DNA of 29,362 bases from Candidatus Heimdallarchaeota archaeon (GCA_048881705.1 JBHLSH010000051.1:1-29362), one strand, 5' to 3'. Counted from the first letter of the stretch, positions 4,533 to 27,814 are shown. The notes: generated by a model from the sequence alone, not told the origin. Made by a program: numbers and translations.

Positions 4533-5345
4533 TCAGGGAAAATCTTTCTTTCTCATCGTGAATGCAGCCAATAATAGAAAACCGATTATCAATCCTAAGC
4601 ATATTAATAAAGAGGTTGAGGGATCAAGGTCCGGTATCTGAAAATCAATGTAATCTGCAAGAAAGAATTCGGCTGCAACATAGTTCAAATGGTTAGCTAT
4701 AGAGTATGGTGAATTTCCACCTGCGGCAATCCCAAAGATAAACTGTCCGAAGAATGCCTCGAAGTATGCCACGGCGAGTCCCCAGCCTAGCGCATTCTTA
4801 TCGAAAATGATTCCCAAGAAAAGGAAGATTGTGCCATAGACGCTCACCCACAATCCTAGATAGAGCCACACACCAAAGAGAACATTAAAATTGTTAAAGA
4901 GCAAGGAAAAGTCTTGAACAATGAAAGATACTCCCAAGAGTATTATTGTGGCATCTAGATTCACAATAATAACACCTAACACAATTACTGTTATCCATTT
5001 GACCACTACAATTTCTTCTCTGCGAACGGGTCTTGAAAGGAGTTGACTAATGGTTTTGCTCTCCTTTTCATCTGCTATTGCTGAAATCCCCAAAATAAGA
5101 GAGATCAGGGGGAGAACAGCGAAACTAAAGATATTGGTGTTCTGGGACATACTTACTATATCGATATAGGTACCAATGGTCGCTGATGTTAATGTTATTG
5201 CTGGAAGGAGCGGCAATATGCTTATGAATATTAATAGGTATGTCTTTTTGTCATAAAGAACCTTTGCGAAGAATATCTCTCCCAAAAACCGTCCCCTTTC
5301 AATTATCGAAGGAGTGTAAACTTGATTTGAAAGATTAGTACCCAT
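4533..5345 (-). CDS. ABC-2 type transporter permease
   Basis: 270 aa with about 6 TM segments and the motif IADEKESKTISQLLSRPVRREEIVVVKW. Last gene of the ABC quartet. Confidence 0.88.
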   Translation of the reverse strand: MGTNLSNQVYTPSIIERGRFLGEIFFAKVLYDKKTYLLIFISILPLLPAITLTSATIGTYIDIVSMSQNTNIFSFAVLPLISLILGISAIADEKESKTISQLLSRPVRREEIVVVKWITVIVLGVIIVNLDATIILLGVSFIVQDFSLLFNNFNVLFGVWLYLGLWVSVYGTIFLFLGIIFDKNALGWGLAVAYFEAFFGQFIFGIAAGGNSPYSIANHLNYVAAEFFLADYIDFQIPDLDPSTSLLICLGLIIGFLLLAAFTMRKKDFP

Positions 5346-5364
5346 ATATTACACCATCTCTGTA

Positions 5365-6285
5365 TTAAGTTAGATAATCAAATATCGCTTCAATATTATC
5401 CGTAGTACTTTCCAGATGTTGAATTAACAGATCGTTTTCGACAATTAGCTTTGTCACGGCTGGATAAAATTTCCTTGGTGCTTCTGTAACCACTACAAGA
5501 TCTTCTCTACCTTTATCAACGTTGAAAGTCATAGAATGCACAATACTCTCCTCGATCAAAAGTTTTGAAAGCATTTTAAGCTCATTAGAAGGAGCTCGAA
5601 AAAGAATCTGATGTGGAAACTGATCTATTAAATTAAGGATCTCATCAGGCGGTCCTTCTGCCAACGATTGCCCGCGATGAATTAAAACCAGCCGAGTACT
5701 CATTTGATCTAACTCGTAGAGAATATGACTAGAGATTAAAATAGTCACTCCCTGCTGATTTAGATCCGAGACAAGTTGTTTCATTTGCCTACGGCCCAAG
5801 GGATCAAGGCCTCCAAAAGGTTCATCCAAAACAAGTAACTCAGGGTTATGTACAATGGCCGCAGCAACCTTTAATCTTTGTTTCATTCCTTTTGAATAAT
5901 GTCCAATCTTCTTCCCTTTTTCAGCCAGACCTACCTTTTGCAGGGCCTCCTTTGCTGCAGCCTCCGCTTGTTGTCGGGGAAGGAGTAGTTTCGCCAGTGA
6001 TGTCACAAATTGTTTACCGCGCATCCAAGGATACGTATCTTCGTGTTCTGAGACATAACCGATTCGTCTTTTGAGGTTAGCATTATTTAGGGGATCTTCG
6101 TTGAAAACACGCACTTTTCCAGCATCTGGTGATATTTCCCCCATTATTAATTTCAGCGTTGTTGATTTACCTGCGCCATTCGGCCCTAGAAAGCCTGAAA
6201 CCGATCCTCTTTTCACTCGCATGCTCAACCGTGATACTGCAACTACATCTCCAAAGGCCTTTGAGACTTCGTTAATTTCAATCAT
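5365..6285 (-). CDS. ABC transporter ATP-binding protein
   Basis: Walker A GPNGAGKS, signature YSKGMKQ, Walker B LLVLDEP, H-loop SSH. Start moved to the ATG at 6285 (MIEINEVSK) because it overlaps the upstream stop (ATGA) and follows a GGAGG RBS. Confidence 0.93.
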   Translation of the reverse strand: MIEINEVSKAFGDVVAVSRLSMRVKRGSVSGFLGPNGAGKSTTLKLIMGEISPDAGKVRVFNEDPLNNANLKRRIGYVSEHEDTYPWMRGKQFVTSLAKLLLPRQQAEAAAKEALQKVGLAEKGKKIGHYSKGMKQRLKVAAAIVHNPELLVLDEPFGGLDPLGRRQMKQLVSDLNQQGVTILISSHILYELDQMSTRLVLIHRGQSLAEGPPDEILNLIDQFPHQILFRAPSNELKMLSKLLIEESIVHSMTFNVDKGREDLVVVTEAPRKFYPAVTKLIVENDLLIQHLESTTDNIEAIFDYLT

Positions 6286-7304
6286 CTTGAATGCCTCCGA
6301 TAAACCTGAATAATGACAATTAGCAACCCAGCGAATATGTAGAGTCCAAGGGCTCCTAGAACCATCCAACTATCGATTCCAATGCCATCTGCTAGATTGA
6401 GAGTGTAAGAACCTTGGAAACTCGCATATTCTACTGTTGTTGCCCCTTTAAGAATATAGGATGTCAAAAGGAGAACTGTGAGAATATCTAGTAATAATTG
6501 GAGTCCTTCTTCTCCGCTTTCACCGAAAGCTAATGGTGGAATTATCATGCTGATTATAAAGAGGAGCATAAAAGCTGCCAAACCAGAATAAAGCCTGCGC
6601 TTCGTTAAGGATGAAAACGCGAGAATCATTGCTGCGTAGGTTATGGTAATGAGTTCTGTGAAAATGATGACATGTAACAGTAAGGGGAGCGCTTCAATAA
6701 AATCTATACCACCTATTCCTATATACAATAGGAAGAATTCAATAATATAAGGTAAGACTAAAGCAATATTGCCAAATATGACGAAAGCTCCGAATTTTCC
6801 AATAACATACTCGTATTTTTCCAGTTTTGAGTAATATATTTCATTCGTTTTGTTGGAAATATCATCCGCGATTAAACCCGCCCCTATTAGTACAAGCAAG
6901 ATTAGGATGAAAATACTTGTTCCACCCACGGTAAATGATGCACTTGCAAAAGGCCCATTCCCATTCCCATTATCCGTTGAAAAAGTGGTCTGAAAGGTAA
7001 CAATACCTCTCACTAATGATAAAAGCGTGTTTTCCATCAATTCCATCGGCGTGAGAAAAGCGATCCCCGTAAGCGGATTCGTCGATAAAACTAGATCTTT
7101 GGTAGCCAAGATGAACATATTTGTTAGGATTAATGTAAACATCAAAAACCCGAAAAGAATCTTTACAGCTCTTGATCTGTCCCATTGATGTTTCCACCAG
7201 TACCAAGAAATTGACCAGATACGATACAAGCGCCCTCTGCGAGTGCCTTCATAGGGGCGAAATGAAAACCTTCGAACGTAGACATCGCTTGATTTTTGTG
7301 TCAA
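6282..7304 (-). CDS. ABC-2 type transporter permease
   Basis: 340 aa, polytopic, with GAGLIADDISNKTNEIYYSK...EYVIGKF. The TTG start overlaps the upstream stop (TTGA) and follows an AGGAG RBS. Confidence 0.85.
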   Translation of the reverse strand: MTQKSSDVYVRRFSFRPYEGTRRGRLYRIWSISWYWWKHQWDRSRAVKILFGFLMFTLILTNMFILATKDLVLSTNPLTGIAFLTPMELMENTLLSLVRGIVTFQTTFSTDNGNGNGPFASASFTVGGTSIFILILLVLIGAGLIADDISNKTNEIYYSKLEKYEYVIGKFGAFVIFGNIALVLPYIIEFFLLYIGIGGIDFIEALPLLLHVIIFTELITITYAAMILAFSSLTKRRLYSGLAAFMLLFIISMIIPPLAFGESGEEGLQLLLDILTVLLLTSYILKGATTVEYASFQGSYTLNLADGIGIDSWMVLGALGLYIFAGLLIVIIQVYRRHSR

Positions 7305-8233
7305 ATGATCAGCTCCTGTTTCGTTTCAAATAGGTCGACAAAAACATCTTCCAGGGTACTTGATCTGCTTCCGATATAACGAATTTCGGCCCCGACCTCA
7401 TAAGCGACCTTAAACAGCGTTCTTTCGATTTCAGGTGTGATTTCCACCTCAATATAGGCTCTCTCCGTAGATACCTGAAGTCCCTTTTTCATTAGGGCAC
7501 TTAGGAACTCCTCCTCTTTTGATTTTACTTTTACACTTATTGTCGTACGCTTTCTTTCTGTTAATTCGTTTATTTTTCCCTGTGCTAGAATTTTTCCTTG
7601 CGATATAACAATTGCATAATCAGTGGTTTGTTCTACATCACGTAGGAGATGTGAACTCAGAATGATATGTTTCCCTTGATCTGTCTGCAAATCCCGAATG
7701 AGTTTTAGCATTTGGACTCTCCCCCCAGGATCCAAGCCGTTGGTCGGTTCATCACAAATAATAATCTCAGGATCATGAACTAATGCAACCGCGAGCTTAA
7801 CTTTCTGTCTCATCCCCAAACTAAAGGTATCTAGCGTTCTATAACGTTCTTCTCCTAACCCGACATAATAGAGGCTATCACTGGCTCTTTGCTTACTTTC
7901 AGAGTTTGATAACCCGTTCATTCGAGCACAGAATGCGACAAATTTCATAGCAGTCGTATCTGGAACAAACGACGTGTTATATTCGGGGATGTATCCGATA
8001 TTATCTCTCACTTGATTGATTTCTTTCCGGATATCGTAACCTAAAACAGTAGCCATTCCCTTTGTGGGGCGAATGATTCCCAAAAGAGTTCGGATTAATG
8101 TGGTTTTACCTGCCCCATTTGGGCCTAACAGGCCTACTCCTCCAGATGGAACATTGATGGTCACATCATCAATTCCACAAACAGTACCATAAAACTTTGA
8201 CAGGTTCTGTGTCACAATGATTTCTGAGAGCAA
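7301..8233 (-). CDS. ABC transporter ATP-binding protein
   Basis: Walker A GPNGAGKT, signature FSLGMRQ, Walker B IIICDEP, H-loop SSH. TTG start preceded by GAGGT. Confidence 0.93.
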   Translation of the reverse strand: MLSEIIVTQNLSKFYGTVCGIDDVTINVPSGGVGLLGPNGAGKTTLIRTLLGIIRPTKGMATVLGYDIRKEINQVRDNIGYIPEYNTSFVPDTTAMKFVAFCARMNGLSNSESKQRASDSLYYVGLGEERYRTLDTFSLGMRQKVKLAVALVHDPEIIICDEPTNGLDPGGRVQMLKLIRDLQTDQGKHIILSSHLLRDVEQTTDYAIVISQGKILAQGKINELTERKRTTISVKVKSKEEEFLSALMKKGLQVSTERAYIEVEITPEIERTLFKVAYEVGAEIRYIGSRSSTLEDVFVDLFETKQELII

Positions 8234-20396: not shown

Positions 20397-20450
20397 ATGG
20401 CGCTCAACCATACACAATCAGTAAATTCTTTTCTAAAGGTTGGTTGTTTA

Positions 20451-21644
20451 ATGGTTAATTTTTCTCTTTCTGAGGAACATAAATTACTGCAAGAAAGTGT
20501 GAGAGATTTTGTGGATCGTGAGGTCGTTCCAAAGGTTTCTGACTACGATAAACAACAAAAATCGTTATACCCTGAGATCCTACCCAAGATGGGAGACCTC
20601 GGCCTATTGGGAATTTGCATCCCAGAAAAGTACGGAGGAGCAGGAATGGATTATATTGCTCTTGCTTTGGCCTGTGAAGAGCTGGAACGGGTTGATACGG
20701 CTTTACGAGTCGTAATGTCCGTTCATGTAGCATTAAACAGCTGTACCTTATACCAATGGGGTACTGAAGACCAGAAGAAAAAATACTTGGTTCCACAGGC
20801 GCAAGGTAAGAAATACGGGGTCTATGGCTTAACGGAATCTTGTTGTGGATCAGATCCAGCATCCATGCAAACTCGTGCTGTAAAAGAAGGAGATGAATAC
20901 ATTCTTAACGGATCTAAGAGCTGGATTTCATTGGTGGATGTAGCTGATAACTTCCTGATATTCGCACGTGTTGGTCAGGAAAAGGGACACAAAGCCATAG
21001 CTGCCTTTATTGTAGAAAGAGATTTTGGCGGAGTAGAAACGAGAAGTTTTAAGGACAAATTGGGCATACGGACCGGTGATACTGGTGAAATTTTTCTCCA
21101 AGATGTCCCCGTCCCAGCTGAAAATCTCCTTGGTGCGGAAGGTGAAGGTTTTAAGATCGCAATGTCTGCTTTGGACAATGGGCGTTTCACTGTGGCTGCA
21201 GGTGCTTGTGGAACAATCCGCGCCTGCCTTGAGGCCTCCATCGCTTATTGTCACGAACGAAAAGCGTTTGGTCAAGAAATAGGCAGGTTCGAATTGATTC
21301 AAGAGCACATCGCAGAGATGCAAGCTGGATATGATCAGTCTCAGCTTTTGGTGTATAAAGCTGGGTGGTTAAAGAACCAAGGAATTCATAATACTCGTGA
21401 GACTGCGATGGCCAAGTGGCAGGCTACTAATTATGCTTGCGATGCTGCCGATCGCGCGATACAGATCCATGGGGCCAATGGCTATTCTAGTGATTTTTCC
21501 GTAGAACGATATTGGCGAAATGCGCGAGCGAATACCATTCTAGAAGGGACCAACGAAGTCCAGAAGTTGATCCAGGGATCGTACGTACTTGGCTATCGTA
21601 AAAAGGCCAAATTACGTCACGAAATGCCAGCATACATACCATAA
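20451..21644 (+). CDS. acyl-CoA dehydrogenase
   Basis: YGLTESCCGSD, YILNGSKSWIS, KLGIR, ALDNGR, RKAFGQ, AIQIHGANGY and ILEGTNEVQK. Start moved to ATG 20451 (MVNFSLSEEH), which matches the usual family N-terminus. Confidence 0.94.
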   Translation: MVNFSLSEEHKLLQESVRDFVDREVVPKVSDYDKQQKSLYPEILPKMGDLGLLGICIPEKYGGAGMDYIALALACEELERVDTALRVVMSVHVALNSCTLYQWGTEDQKKKYLVPQAQGKKYGVYGLTESCCGSDPASMQTRAVKEGDEYILNGSKSWISLVDVADNFLIFARVGQEKGHKAIAAFIVERDFGGVETRSFKDKLGIRTGDTGEIFLQDVPVPAENLLGAEGEGFKIAMSALDNGRFTVAAGACGTIRACLEASIAYCHERKAFGQEIGRFELIQEHIAEMQAGYDQSQLLVYKAGWLKNQGIHNTRETAMAKWQATNYACDAADRAIQIHGANGYSSDFSVERYWRNARANTILEGTNEVQKLIQGSYVLGYRKKAKLRHEMPAYIP

Positions 21645-24231: not shown

Positions 24232-25455
24232 TTACATTCGTAATCCACCATCTACCTGAACAACTGATCCAGTCATGTAGTCCGAGTCTGATGATCCTAG
24301 GAACACTGCAACTTTGGCAACATCATTTGGGAATCCAATGCGCATTTGGGGAATCTGAGCGATGGTTTGTTCTTTATAAACGTTGGGAGTGTCCGCCGTC
24401 ATGGCCGTTTCAATATATCCAGGCATAATACAGTTAACATTGACCTTATAACGGGCTAGCTCACGCGCCGCCGTTTTTGATAGAGCGATGATACCCCACT
24501 TTGATGCTGCATACGCAGCCTGTCCGAGATTTCCATATTTGGCAGCTGTTGACGTAAAATTGATTATTTTGCCACCAAGCGGCCTTTTCTCCATGAAATG
24601 AGGTGAAATGGCTCGAATACAATTGAAAGTACCCTTGAGGTTAATATCCATGACTGTATTCCACTGTTCATCGGTCATTTTACTGATCAACGCACTTCGG
24701 CTTATGCCCGCATTATTTACAAGAATATCAATCTGTTTAAAAGCGTCCAAAGCTAAATTGACCAATTGGGTGACCCCATCTACGTCGGATACGTCACATT
24801 TAACGGCGAGGGCTTTAGTACCTAAATTTTGAATCTCTTCAACAAGGGAATCAAGGTCTGATTTGGTTCTTGCAGCACAAACAACCTTAGCGCCTTCCCG
24901 GGCATATTCCAATGCAATTTCACGGCCGATTCCCTTTCCTGCCCCAGTGATAATCGCCACTCTGCCTGTTAGCCGCTGACGCGATTTTACAGGACCTTCA
25001 TCTTTTATTTTATCTTTTTCTTCTGTTGAAGTCCGTACAATATCGCCTCGTAACAGCTTGTAGACTACGCGATCGCCCTCGATGACTTCCGCTTCAACTT
25101 TCACTTTTTCTCCGATTTTAAGATCCTCAGACTTAGATGCTCCACTCCAGGTCACCAACCGACCCCCTTCTTTTAGTTTAACCACGACGTTGGTATAAGG
25201 GGCAAATCGTTCAAATCCAGCTGGTGGTACATGTACCTCCGAAAAACTCAGAATCTCCCCTTCTCCTGACAATTCGATATGTTCCATGAATTCATTAGTT
25301 AAACATTTCGCAGTACAGTAAGCTCGTGGTGGATAATAGAGAGTTCCACATTTTTTACACTTGGTTCCTTCCAACACATTTTCTCGCAGCTTATTAATGA
25401 ATCTCTCGCCGATCTTCGACTGAGAAACATAATTACGATACCCAAACGACTTCAT
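24232..25455 (-). CDS. DUF35 (Zn-ribbon/OB-fold) - SDR (FabG-like ketoacyl reductase) fusion protein
   Basis: aa 1-137 contain CKKC..YYPPRAYC...C, LSGEGEILSFS and APY..VVVKL (DUF35). A charged linker follows. From aa ~162 there is a classical SDR: TGAGKGIG, NNAG, NFTS, YAASK and PG. An AGGTGA RBS overlaps the thiolase stop. Confidence 0.9.
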   Translation of the reverse strand: MKSFGYRNYVSQSKIGERFINKLRENVLEGTKCKKCGTLYYPPRAYCTAKCLTNEFMEHIELSGEGEILSFSEVHVPPAGFERFAPYTNVVVKLKEGGRLVTWSGASKSEDLKIGEKVKVEAEVIEGDRVVYKLLRGDIVRTSTEEKDKIKDEGPVKSRQRLTGRVAIITGAGKGIGREIALEYAREGAKVVCAARTKSDLDSLVEEIQNLGTKALAVKCDVSDVDGVTQLVNLALDAFKQIDILVNNAGISRSALISKMTDEQWNTVMDINLKGTFNCIRAISPHFMEKRPLGGKIINFTSTAAKYGNLGQAAYAASKWGIIALSKTAARELARYKVNVNCIMPGYIETAMTADTPNVYKEQTIAQIPQMRIGFPNDVAKVAVFLGSSDSDYMTGSVVQVDGGLRM

Positions 25456-25464
25456 TTCCTGCCA

Positions 25465-26631
25465 TCACCTAGAAAAGATGTGTACAACACAGTATTGGCC
25501 ATGTCCACCGACGTTATGTGTCAAACCAATTTCTGCCCCGTCAACTTGGCTCTTGCCCGCTTCACCTCGTAATTGCTTAACCACCCCCACCACTTGTGAT
25601 GCACCAGTCGCACCTACAGGATGGCCTTTAGCCTTTAATCCTCCATCGACATTTATTGGGATTTTACCCCCGATATATGTTTCCCCTTCTTCAACAAATT
25701 TCCCACCTTCTCCTCTTTCTGTAAATCCGAGATCTTCATACGCCATAATTTCGGCAATAGTAAAGCAGTCGTGGACCGCAGCGACATCAATTTTGCCAGG
25801 TTCTATCTTGGATTGGAGATATGCCCGTCGAGAAGCTTCGACAGCGCTACTTAAATTGCTCAGTTCGGGGCGAGTAAGCAAACTAAAAGGAGCAGTAGCG
25901 GCTCCAAGTCCTTCAATCCAGACAGGCGTATCAGAAAGCTGCTTTGCTTTTTCTTCATTCGCCACTACCAATGCAGCGGCCCCGTCAGCATTGGCGCAGC
26001 AATCAAACAAACGAAGGGGTGATGCAATCATTCGAGATTCCAAGGCCTTTTCAATTGTAATTTCCTTTTGGAACATCGCTTTTTTATTCATAGCTCCGTA
26101 ATAGTGATTTTTAACCGCGACTGCCGCCATCTGCTCAGAACTAGTTCCGAATTTAGACATATGCGCATTTGCGTACATCGCGTAATAGTTTGCAAAAGTA
26201 GTACCAAAGGGAGCTTCCCACTGAACATCACCAGTTCTTCCCATTATTTTGAGAATCTCTGAAGTTGGGTTTTCCAGCATTTTCTGAACACCTAGAACCA
26301 AAACGATGTCGTGCATCTTTGCTTTGATGAGAGCGTATGCAGATCTTAGTGCAGCAGCAGAGCTGCTACAGGCGGCTTCGGTGAGCCAGACCGGCTGGGG
26401 ATTTAACCCTAAATACTCAGTAATCGGCCCAGCAATGCTTCTTTGGGTCATGTAGACTGGACTAGCTCCTATGATGGTCGCATCAATGTCTTTCTGCGTA
26501 ATATTTGCATCCAAAAGGGCTTCAGCAAAAGGTTCGAAGGCCAACTCTTGGACTGAGACATCATCTCGTCGGCCAAACCGACTATTTCCGATTCCAATTA
26601 TTCCAACTTTGGTCAATGATTTAGGCTCCAT
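25465..26631 (-). CDS. thiolase (archaeal/SCP2-type acetyl-CoA acetyltransferase)
   Basis: Catalytic Cys in EAACSS, plus VHDCFT, GGLKAKGHPVGATG and THNVGG. Confidence 0.93.
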   Translation of the reverse strand: MEPKSLTKVGIIGIGNSRFGRRDDVSVQELAFEPFAEALLDANITQKDIDATIIGASPVYMTQRSIAGPITEYLGLNPQPVWLTEAACSSSAAALRSAYALIKAKMHDIVLVLGVQKMLENPTSEILKIMGRTGDVQWEAPFGTTFANYYAMYANAHMSKFGTSSEQMAAVAVKNHYYGAMNKKAMFQKEITIEKALESRMIASPLRLFDCCANADGAAALVVANEEKAKQLSDTPVWIEGLGAATAPFSLLTRPELSNLSSAVEASRRAYLQSKIEPGKIDVAAVHDCFTIAEIMAYEDLGFTERGEGGKFVEEGETYIGGKIPINVDGGLKAKGHPVGATGASQVVGVVKQLRGEAGKSQVDGAEIGLTHNVGGHGQYCVVHIFSR

Positions 26632-26645
26632 ACATGTTTAGCTTG

Positions 26646-27692
26646 TCATTTTTGGCATAAAACAATTGTTCGAACTCCTTCTCCTCTTCTCATGACATCA
26701 AACGCTTCATTGATTTCCGAAAGAGGATACTTTCCAGTAACTAGCGGTTTAACCACAATTTTTTGATTTTGAACCAATTTAATAATACGAGGATAGTCAA
26801 CCGTGCGACATCCCAATGATCCCATGATCTCCATTTCACGAAACATGACTCTTCCAATATCGAACCCATCCCATCTTTTAGGTGAGTACCCTACGGCAAC
26901 TAATCGGCCTCCAGTCCTTAAGCTATTGAAAGCCTGTTTCATGGTTACAGGGTTGCCAATACACTCAAAAGCAACATCTGCACCTCCATCAGTAATCTTG
27001 CGAATTGTACCAACGATTCCACGATCATCTAGATCGGCGGCAGATAAAGCTTCGACTGCACCAAGTCGTTTTGCGATTTCTAGTTTTTCGGGAATAATGT
27101 CAACTGCAATTGGCAATCCACCCGCCACTTTAATGTTTTGAACCGTGTTTAGGCCTATTCCCCCACATCCGATGACAACAGCCCAGTCTCCAGGACGGAT
27201 CTGCCCACGATTTTTAACAGCATGATATGGAGTGGAAACCGCATCGGATATGATACACCCCTCTTCCAACGGGATTTCAGGAGGCAGAGGGAAGATATCT
27301 TTGACGGGAATCACGATCTGTTCAGCAAAACCACCATCTACATTGGAACCAAAAAAGGTTTGATTTAAACATATGTTCTCGCGACCAGTCCGACAAAAAT
27401 AGCAATTTCCGCATGAAATAACTGCAGGAACAAGCACATGATCGCCTTGCTTAAAAACGGTGACATCTTCGCTAGTTTCACGAATGATTCCTGACATTTC
27501 ATGTCCCAAAACTAAAGGAGGGGATTTACCTGTTGGAACCCCATGGTCTAGAAATCCAATGTCAGTGTGACAAACCCCACAAGCCGTTATGTCAATGATT
27601 GCTTTTCCTGAAGTGTCACCGAGGTCGGGCGACGGATAATTTCCATTCAATTTCAAAGGAGCCTTTACCTGTTCAAATATAGCTGCACGCAT
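26646..27692 (-). CDS. Zn-dependent (MDR) alcohol dehydrogenase, resembling 6-hydroxycyclohex-1-ene-1-carbonyl-CoA dehydrogenase (Had/BamQ-like)
   Basis: CGVCHTD, GHE, CGNCYFCRTGRENIC, DAVSTPYHA, GCGGIG, VD (NAD-type) and GSLGCR. Start moved to ATG 27692 (MRAAIFEQ). Confidence 0.85.
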   Translation of the reverse strand: MRAAIFEQVKAPLKLNGNYPSPDLGDTSGKAIIDITACGVCHTDIGFLDHGVPTGKSPPLVLGHEMSGIIRETSEDVTVFKQGDHVLVPAVISCGNCYFCRTGRENICLNQTFFGSNVDGGFAEQIVIPVKDIFPLPPEIPLEEGCIISDAVSTPYHAVKNRGQIRPGDWAVVIGCGGIGLNTVQNIKVAGGLPIAVDIIPEKLEIAKRLGAVEALSAADLDDRGIVGTIRKITDGGADVAFECIGNPVTMKQAFNSLRTGGRLVAVGYSPKRWDGFDIGRVMFREMEIMGSLGCRTVDYPRIIKLVQNQKIVVKPLVTGKYPLSEINEAFDVMRRGEGVRTIVLCQK

Positions 27693-27814
27693 AGGAACCA
27701 CTTGTTGAAACAAGGAAAATCTGCTGATTTTTAATTGTTCCTGCAATTCTGGTTACATAATAAGTACAGGATTTTACTGAGGCCGTTTACTCCCGTTTAA
27801 TCTTCATGCGGTGT

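Follow-up and report, generated by a model that had tools for sequence, protein, structure and literature searches.

DUF35 proteins are known to clamp thiolases to HMG-CoA synthase (HMG, 3-hydroxy-3-methylglutaryl) and, according to a 2024 preprint, to a ketoacyl-CoA reductase. In the complex from Methanothermococcus thermolithotrophicus (6ESQ/6ET9), DUF35 bridges the thiolase to HMG-CoA synthase, the enzyme that shares its 3-oxoacyl-CoA intermediate. In Sulfolobus acidocaldarius, a non-covalent complex of a thiolase (KT) and DUF35 (Saci_1121/1120) with a short-chain dehydrogenase/reductase (SDR), the ketoacyl-CoA reductase Saci_1104, has been shown; its synthesis genes also lie among beta-oxidation genes, and the preprint does not mention fused forms (10.1101/2024.07.05.601840). 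DUF35 joined to a thiolase-partner enzyme has been described in Pseudomonas fluorescens (PfACAT/HMGS-DUF35; Nat Commun 2026, PMC12960953). Here we analysed a window of 29,362 nucleotides (nt) from a Candidatus Heimdallarchaeota archaeon (GCA_048881705.1 JBHLSH010000051.1:1-29362), in which a single gene of 407 amino acids (aa) on the minus strand (24232..25455, the whole open reading frame (ORF) including the stop) joins a DUF35 domain to a FabG-like SDR directly downstream of a thiolase gene. No description of a DUF35::SDR fusion was found in the literature searched. The gene context suggests that the thiolase and the fusion take part in degrading ring-opened benzoate-type compounds and not in fatty-acid synthesis, and we put at roughly 55% the probability that the pair converts 3-hydroxypimelyl-CoA to glutaryl-CoA and acetyl-CoA, in the two steps that follow the ring hydrolase Oah (BamA). 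We observe a conserved architecture with intact catalytic residues, a recurrent gene context and a genome-level co-occurrence with Oah.

The minus strand of the window carries three co-directional genes: a Zn-dependent medium-chain dehydrogenase/reductase (MDR), an archaeal-type (SCP-x-like) thiolase and the fusion ORF. The DUF35 domain of the fusion (aa 1-136; 25048..25455, minus strand, as are the parts that follow) comprises a four-Cys zinc ribbon and an OB fold (Pfam zf-ChsH2, aa 22-51, and OB_ChsH2_C, aa 61-121, both above their cut-offs) and is the predicted thiolase-docking part. It is beta-rich in the AlphaFold model of the fusion (mean predicted local distance difference test (pLDDT) score 78), and its best solved relative is 6ESQ_E (59 bits), the DUF35 chain of the M. 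thermolithotrophicus complex. Three of the zinc-ribbon cysteines (C33, C36 and C47) are invariant, and the fourth, C51, is kept in 59 of 65 fusion homologues. A charged linker of about 24 aa (aa 137-160; 24976..25047) is poorly conserved among the homologues and modelled as disordered (pLDDT below 50 for aa 138-158). It leads into the FabG-like classical SDR domain (aa 161-407; 24232..24975; adh_short, aa 165-356; adh_short_C2, aa 171-405), whose tetrad N272, S302, Y315 and K319 is invariant in a 45-sequence alignment of fusion homologues. At the gene junction (25456..25470, minus strand), a Shine-Dalgarno-like hexamer, AGGTGA (25470-25465), overlaps the thiolase TGA stop (25467-25465) and is followed by a 9-nt spacer (25464-25456) and the fusion ATG at 25455. 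The first-pass annotation of this stretch had described the same layout, namely one ORF with an intact four-Cys DUF35, a charged linker and a classical SDR, starting 9 bp after the thiolase stop with the ribosome-binding site over that stop, and both the domain searches and the coordinates bear it out.

The fusion recurs widely enough to be real. A search of 5.8 billion proteins recovered about 65 clusters (at least 65) of 51-89% identity with the same full architecture from independent assemblies, so that an assembly or frameshift artefact, a doubt raised with the first-pass annotation, is rejected. Exhaustive search of 1.84 billion representatives placed this architecture in one single 50%-identity cluster, the other strong matches covering the SDR part only, and no second DUF35::SDR family occurred among the 150 best of these representatives; N-terminally extended SDR matches carry other domains (Metallophos, lipoyl, acyltransferase, KAS III). 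When longer proteins were sought with the DUF35 part, in a search limited by word sharing, only this fusion family was found. All named homologues are Asgard archaea, mostly of the Hod/Heimdall group, under the labels Hodarchaeota/Hodarchaeales, Heimdallarchaeota and Kariarchaeaceae, with some Thor-, Hermod- or Odinarchaeota. Among 400 sampled genomes of the phylum, its own genome carries the full fusion, as do 13 of the 21 others in the same GTDB genus; in one further genome of the genus the copy is cut at a contig end, and outside the genus only one genome has the fusion. The fusion is thus essentially confined to one genus-level lineage, a narrower spread than the NCBI labels suggest. Two loci (L042:5142-6362 and L043:1568-2800) are publicly annotated as stand-alone SDRs of 255-264 aa; because in both the open frame continues upstream across an entire DUF35 domain, these genes are fusions with mis-called starts.

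The thiolase (25465..26631, minus strand; 388 aa) adjoins the fusion directly upstream in all 17 loci examined. It scores 492 bits against NF004720 (cut-off 420), and C88, H337 and the HDxF motif (HDCF here) are invariant in 16 orthologues. In a complex model of this predicted docking partner with DUF35 aa 1-140, the interface score ipSAE was 0.87 in three of three runs, the best of three controls reaching 0.00, with a partner pLDDT of at least 88 and at least 98% of contacts common to the runs. Among solved complexes, 58 of 80 attain this ipSAE mark, and among mismatched pairs 2 of 110; since similar thiolase/DUF35 complexes have been solved (6ESQ, 7PXP), this pass may reflect prior exposure of the predictor to them and is likeness rather than proof. 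The modelled DUF35 interface (aa 69-79, 87-91 and 98-103) takes in many fusion-invariant residues, e.g., S70, P78, P86, Y87, G98 and R99. The DUF35 domain is thus predicted to dock on the operon thiolase.

What the fusion represents is a DUF35-mediated assembly of thiolase and SDR in covalent form. An assembly of this kind had been anticipated by the first-pass annotation, and the S. acidocaldarius complex provides it in non-covalent form (10.1101/2024.07.05.601840). As in S. acidocaldarius, the locus combines an archaeal-type thiolase, a DUF35 adaptor and a FabG-like NADP-type SDR (their assembly being predicted here), with a Zn-alcohol-dehydrogenase-type MDR (COG1064) nearby, no acyl carrier protein (ACP), and a separate NAD-type module of 3-hydroxyacyl-CoA dehydrogenase (HADH) and enoyl-CoA hydratase (ECH). 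Unlike in that system, DUF35 and the SDR form one polypeptide, the operon has a crotonase and not a MaoC dehydratase, the MDR is NAD-type and Had-like, and the cluster travels with Oah, which points to catabolism. With the M. thermolithotrophicus complex it shares a thiolase of the same type, with the HDxF motif, and a DUF35 placed between enzymes sharing a 3-oxoacyl-CoA intermediate, whereas the partner here is an SDR instead of HMG-CoA synthase and the join is covalent. PfACAT/HMGS-DUF35 is a precedent for joining DUF35 to a thiolase-partner enzyme, but with an HMGS-like domain, in a bacterium and in other chemistry. The BbsAB/BbsCD system of toluene degradation (7PXP, 7PCS) resembles the locus in being a catabolic cluster of acyl-CoA dehydrogenase (ACAD), crotonase, SDR, thiolase, DUF35, EtfAB and FeS oxidoreductase, and differs in having BbsA and BbsCD as separate proteins. 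Orthology to BbsB, BbsA and BbsD was rejected (BbsB 197 bits, cut-off 750; BbsA 28.5 bits), as was a BbsD identity of the SDR, which at 169 bits falls below its FabG matches at 213.

The link to Oah supports the catabolic reading. The organism's own genome (91% complete, which sets the scope of the genome-wide negatives given here) encodes a true Oah/BamA on contig C114 (TIGR03200, 571 bits, cut-off 464, a mark that all control genomes stayed below). Five related genomes place Oah orthologues (79-80% identity) at a distance of 0.1-1.5 kb from the fusion, and one of the five has Oah immediately downstream on the fusion's strand. Within the 400-genome sample, 15 genomes have both the fusion and Oah (including the one outside the genus) and 383 have neither; one has the fusion alone, in the copy cut at a contig end, and one, a 70% complete genome, has Oah alone. 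The same parts surround Oah elsewhere. From a collection of 185,579 species genomes we fetched 80 Oah loci and surveyed the 42 that lie outside Hodarchaeum and have flanks of at least 5 kb on either side: a FabG-like SDR was present in 30 (adjoining Oah in 22), an archaeal-type thiolase in 16, a DUF35 gene in 20, a crotonase in 36 and an MDR in 23, and the whole unfused SDR-thiolase-DUF35 triad in 15. These unfused triads, from Thermoplasmata, Desulfobacterales, Syntrophomonadaceae, Peptococcaceae and others, have the same three parts beside Oah, a Dch-like ECH and an MDR, thiolases 50-67% identical to ours, and SDRs without Asp and with Arg or Lys after beta-2; unlike the fusion, they consist of separate genes in the order SDR-KT-DUF35, and their SDRs belong to a different clade. 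The nearest non-Asgard relatives of the thiolase are Thermoplasmata proteins (64-70% identity), one of which shares its chromosome record with an Oah locus (L067) and is very probably the thiolase of that locus.

The neighbouring genes are consistent with such a pathway. In Hodarchaeum-type Asgard archaea the conserved operon order is crotonase, Zn-MDR, thiolase and DUF35::SDR; in the 17 related loci the conserved block begins with a divergent CCG FeS oxidoreductase (12 loci), followed by the four-gene operon (MDR in 15 loci; crotonase in 13, or 14 including L042), with an ACAD, or an aminotransferase, an ACAD and EtfB/EtfA, on its 3' side. The MDR (26646..27695, minus strand) has Had (TIGR03201) as its best NCBIfam match (216 bits, cut-off 338), shares with Had the DAV[ST]TPY motif and an NAD-type Asp, and has Asp at the NAD-determining position (AVDI) in 14 of 14 orthologues. 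Its ORF is open from a TTG (26646-27746), and all 13 orthologues are 348-357 aa long and align from the ATG at 27695; that ATG is probably the start (349 aa), the annotated one lying 17 codons too early. The own assembly lacks the crotonase, which synteny with the nearest relative would place just beyond the end of the window and contig; among NCBIfam families it best matches the dienoyl-CoA hydratase Dch (185 bits, cut-off 292), and it looks canonical, with both catalytic Glu. An ACAD on the plus strand of the window (20397..21644), whose orthologue adjoins the fusion in four other genomes, best matches the non-decarboxylating glutaryl-CoA dehydrogenase (357 bits, cut-off 470).

The cofactor pocket of the SDR had been read by the first-pass annotation as a sign of the reductive direction. 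The motifs on which this rested are present: TGAGKGIG (Gly motif, with K174) and CAART after beta-2 (with R196), without Asp. A basic residue in the Gly motif and A-R-T after beta-2 are each found in 64 of 65 homologues, and the NADH-dependent FabG 4NBU has Asp where the fusion SDR has Ala-Arg. By the classical SDR rules, the pocket is thus predicted to be of the NADP type, and this part of the claim stands. The direction does not follow from it: the unfused Oah-linked SDRs of other anaerobes likewise have no Asp, Arg or Lys after beta-2 and an NYRKH-type motif, so that an NADP-type pocket is normal in the catabolic Oah-linked context, is no pointer to biosynthesis and says little on direction. 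In one of the 65 fused homologues, D-M-N replaces A-R-T after beta-2 (positions 195-197); this family member may have changed to an NAD-type pocket. The fused SDRs were also considered as orthologues of the Oah-linked SDRs. This was rejected, as the tree places the fused domains outside the Oah-linked clade, although its comparison set consisted of the best matches to the query and is biased toward such a separation; the placement points to a separate recruitment.

We infer complex formation, substrate, cofactor and direction of flux for the thiolase/fusion unit as follows. The thiolase and DUF35::SDR would form one physical unit, in which the zinc-ribbon/OB domain clamps the thiolase and the flexible linker keeps the active FabG-like SDR near the CoA site of the thiolase, so that the 3-oxoacyl-CoA intermediate could be handed between the two active sites without build-up. 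The operon would cooperate with Oah/BamA and with the glutaryl-CoA-dehydrogenase-like ACAD, EtfAB and the FeS oxidoreductase in an anaerobic benzoyl-CoA or alicyclic-CoA route, acting after ring opening. The SDR would oxidise 3-hydroxypimelyl-CoA to 3-oxopimelyl-CoA, probably with NADP+, and the thiolase would then cleave 3-oxopimelyl-CoA to glutaryl-CoA and acetyl-CoA; through the tether, the favourable thiolysis might pull the unfavourable alcohol oxidation. ACADs weakly similar to cyclohexanecarboxyl-CoA dehydrogenases suggest an alicyclic entry into the pathway.

Several observations weigh against placing the pair in the ring pathway. An NADP-type SDR pocket is classically paired with reduction, and the tree puts the fused SDR domains among generic FabG-like proteins, in a clade of their own (support 0.99). 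A classical thiolase that could do the same cleavage begins 3 nt after Oah on C114 and runs off the contig. Because related genomes do not count as independent cases, the co-occurrence comes down to about two separate lineages plus the matching absences within the genus. The matches to Dch, Had and glutaryl-CoA dehydrogenase are all under the curated cut-offs, and a convincing dearomatising reductase common to the genus was not found; a BcrCBAD-like cluster on contig C89 of the own genome scores under the family cut-offs. Finally, three relatives of the thiolase chosen regardless of Oah lie in SDR-thiolase-DUF35 or ECH-SDR-thiolase operons with Oah absent within 7 kb, which argues that the triad is a general beta-oxidation-type module and not specific to pimelyl-CoA.

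This last point leads to an alternative that we consider possible though unlikely, in which the operon is such a general and possibly reversible module whose substrates lie outside the ring pathway: short or medium, branched or dicarboxylic acyl-CoAs, e.g., from amino-acid fermentation. The crotonase would hydrate, the SDR (or the MDR) oxidise and the thiolase cleave, the Oah link being one of several uses, and in reverse the module could build pimeloyl-CoA or butyrate-type products. Oah-free ECH-SDR-thiolase-DUF35 operons in Thermoplasmata and Methanomassiliicoccales relatives agree with this, as do the canonical crotonase with both catalytic Glu, an ACAD, EtfAB and FeS oxidoreductase that suit any acyl-CoA oxidation, and the frequency of an aminotransferase among the neighbours. 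The near-perfect co-occurrence with Oah by genome, the adjoining Oah of the five genomes and the best family matches of three neighbour genes, which all point to the benzoyl-CoA pathway, speak instead for the ring-derived substrate. Moreover, the genome already has a classical NAD-type beta-oxidation module (G000:C10:41776-44997; locus L005:2776-5997), consisting of a 661-aa fusion of an N-terminal 3HCDH (HADH) and a C-terminal ECH domain, with a classical 395-aa thiolase after it, so that ordinary fatty-acid oxidation does not require the operon. The inverted domain order of this 3HCDH-ECH protein is that of Saci_1109.

The first-pass annotation had proposed the opposite flux, with the reductase hard-wired onto the thiolase for fatty acid or polyhydroxyalkanoate (PHA) synthesis. 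The hard-wiring has held up, in that the fusion is real, lies in a thiolase operon and is predicted to dock; the biosynthetic purpose is not supported. We regard as improbable a CoA-dependent, ACP-independent condensation-reduction complex like that of S. acidocaldarius, in which the thiolase condenses an acyl-CoA with acetyl-CoA, the tethered NADPH reductase pulls this endergonic step via an (R)-3-hydroxyacyl-CoA, and the MDR is the enoyl-CoA reductase. The precedent itself, a KT/DUF35/ketoacyl-CoA reductase (ACR) complex with a COG1064-type MDR enoyl-CoA reductase (10.1101/2024.07.05.601840), argues for it, together with the NADP-type pocket kept in nearly all homologues; the same pocket type in the catabolic Oah-linked SDRs, however, takes away much of what the latter could tell. 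The closest stand-alone SDR relatives are FabG-like proteins, the DUF35 domain and the thiolase are nearer to the anabolic M. thermolithotrophicus pair than to BbsAB, and all operon enzymes are reversible. No ACP match was found in the own genome, and two MaoC dehydratases and three PlsC-type acyltransferases (PF01553; G000:C5:81370-81732, C17:26827-27222 and C10:36829-37233) are encoded there, archaeal control genomes having no PF01553 match. The MaoC genes, for which a search had been proposed, are unlinked to the operon: no fusion operon examined has MaoC, and the canonical crotonase in its place does not fit the (R)-product that a FabG-like reductase should give. The MDR, with its invariant NAD-type Asp and Had-like motifs, is likewise unlike the NADPH-specific Saci_1115. 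Co-occurrence and adjacency with a catabolic ring hydrolase, and the restriction of the family to about one genus-level lineage where a general Asgard trait might be expected, also argue for breakdown. A more specific form, doubtful to at least the same degree, has the fused complex of Hodarchaeales running reductively at the core of an ACP-free, thiolase-based chain-building cycle, in which the thiolase would work with the tethered NADPH reductase, the crotonase and the MDR as NADH-dependent enoyl reductase to give fatty acyl-CoA or pimeloyl-CoA; if true, a group counted among the eukaryotes' closest known relatives would have an archaeal fatty acid synthase that is wired covalently. PHA synthesis, with a PhaA-like thiolase and a PhaB-like reductase feeding a PHA synthase, is very improbable. 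The thiolase and the NADP-type, acetoacetyl-CoA-reductase-like SDR do resemble PhaA and PhaB, but the SDR scores 202 bits against TIGR01829, below the PhaB family cut-off of 302, the gene context is catabolic, and the proposed genome search for PhaC and PhaE returned no match to PhaC_N and none to PhaE, the latter being weak since that search matched no control genome either. Tying the complex to ACL, or to eukaryogenesis and its lipid transition, is speculation.

Some observations concern the wider genome and the Oah loci. On C114 (locus L048), Oah (5234-6352) has neighbours at 378-1616, 1702-2220 and 6355-7461; a PaaY-like protein is encoded upstream of it, as is a member of the HGD-D family (best match HadB, 196 bits), and the proximity of HGD-D and Oah recurs in G070:C4. 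The C89 cluster (G000:C89:3200-7397, locus L049) consists of four genes with best matches to benzoyl-CoA reductase C, B, A and D, in the Thauera order. Close relatives of the cluster belong to different families of the class, and other members of the genus gave no close relative of its BcrB-like protein, just weak HGD-D matches. Benzoyl-CoA reductase was therefore rejected as a marker travelling with the fusion, and the cluster may be particular to the strain, have arrived by lateral transfer or be mis-binned (contamination estimate 7.5%). Two types of MDR seem to fill the Had position in Oah clusters: in L088, L092, L096 and L098, from Bacteroidota, Gemmatimonadota, Ignavibacteriales and Chitinophagales metagenome-assembled genomes, a 342-aa MDR is 51-54% identical to the Hodarchaeum operon MDR, and in most other Oah clusters the identity is just 29-36%. 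The own genome has two further thiolase/DUF35 pairs (G000:C3:81118-83057, L001:5119-7057; G000:C26:10401-11947, L002:5402-6948), which could serve the mevalonate pathway; no HMG-CoA synthase lies beside them within the 12 kb fetched. One of their DUF35s has 229 aa with an N-terminal extension, and the other, a four-Cys protein of 122 aa, goes unrecognised by Pfam. The PlsC-type acyltransferase on C10 lies about 5 kb from the beta-oxidation module. In two divergent Heimdall/Hod-type loci, a gelsolin-domain protein, a eukaryote signature, is encoded directly downstream of the fusion on the opposite strand (L043:2861-3799 and L044:9268-10146).

An NADP-type SDR beside a thiolase and DUF35 in an Asgard genome should not be taken to indicate fatty-acid synthesis in archaea or the lipid transition of eukaryogenesis, and this caution should accompany the annotation of such loci. 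An Asgard genomic study assigned the 3-hydroxypimelyl-CoA dehydrogenase and 3-oxopimelyl-CoA thiolase steps only to generic beta-oxidation enzymes (PMC8163825); the SDR-thiolase-DUF35 triad beside bamA/oah in many anaerobes provides candidates for both steps. The natural fusion is independent genetic evidence that DUF35 recruits an SDR to a thiolase, and its gene context suggests that the principle of DUF35 tethering applies in catabolism too.

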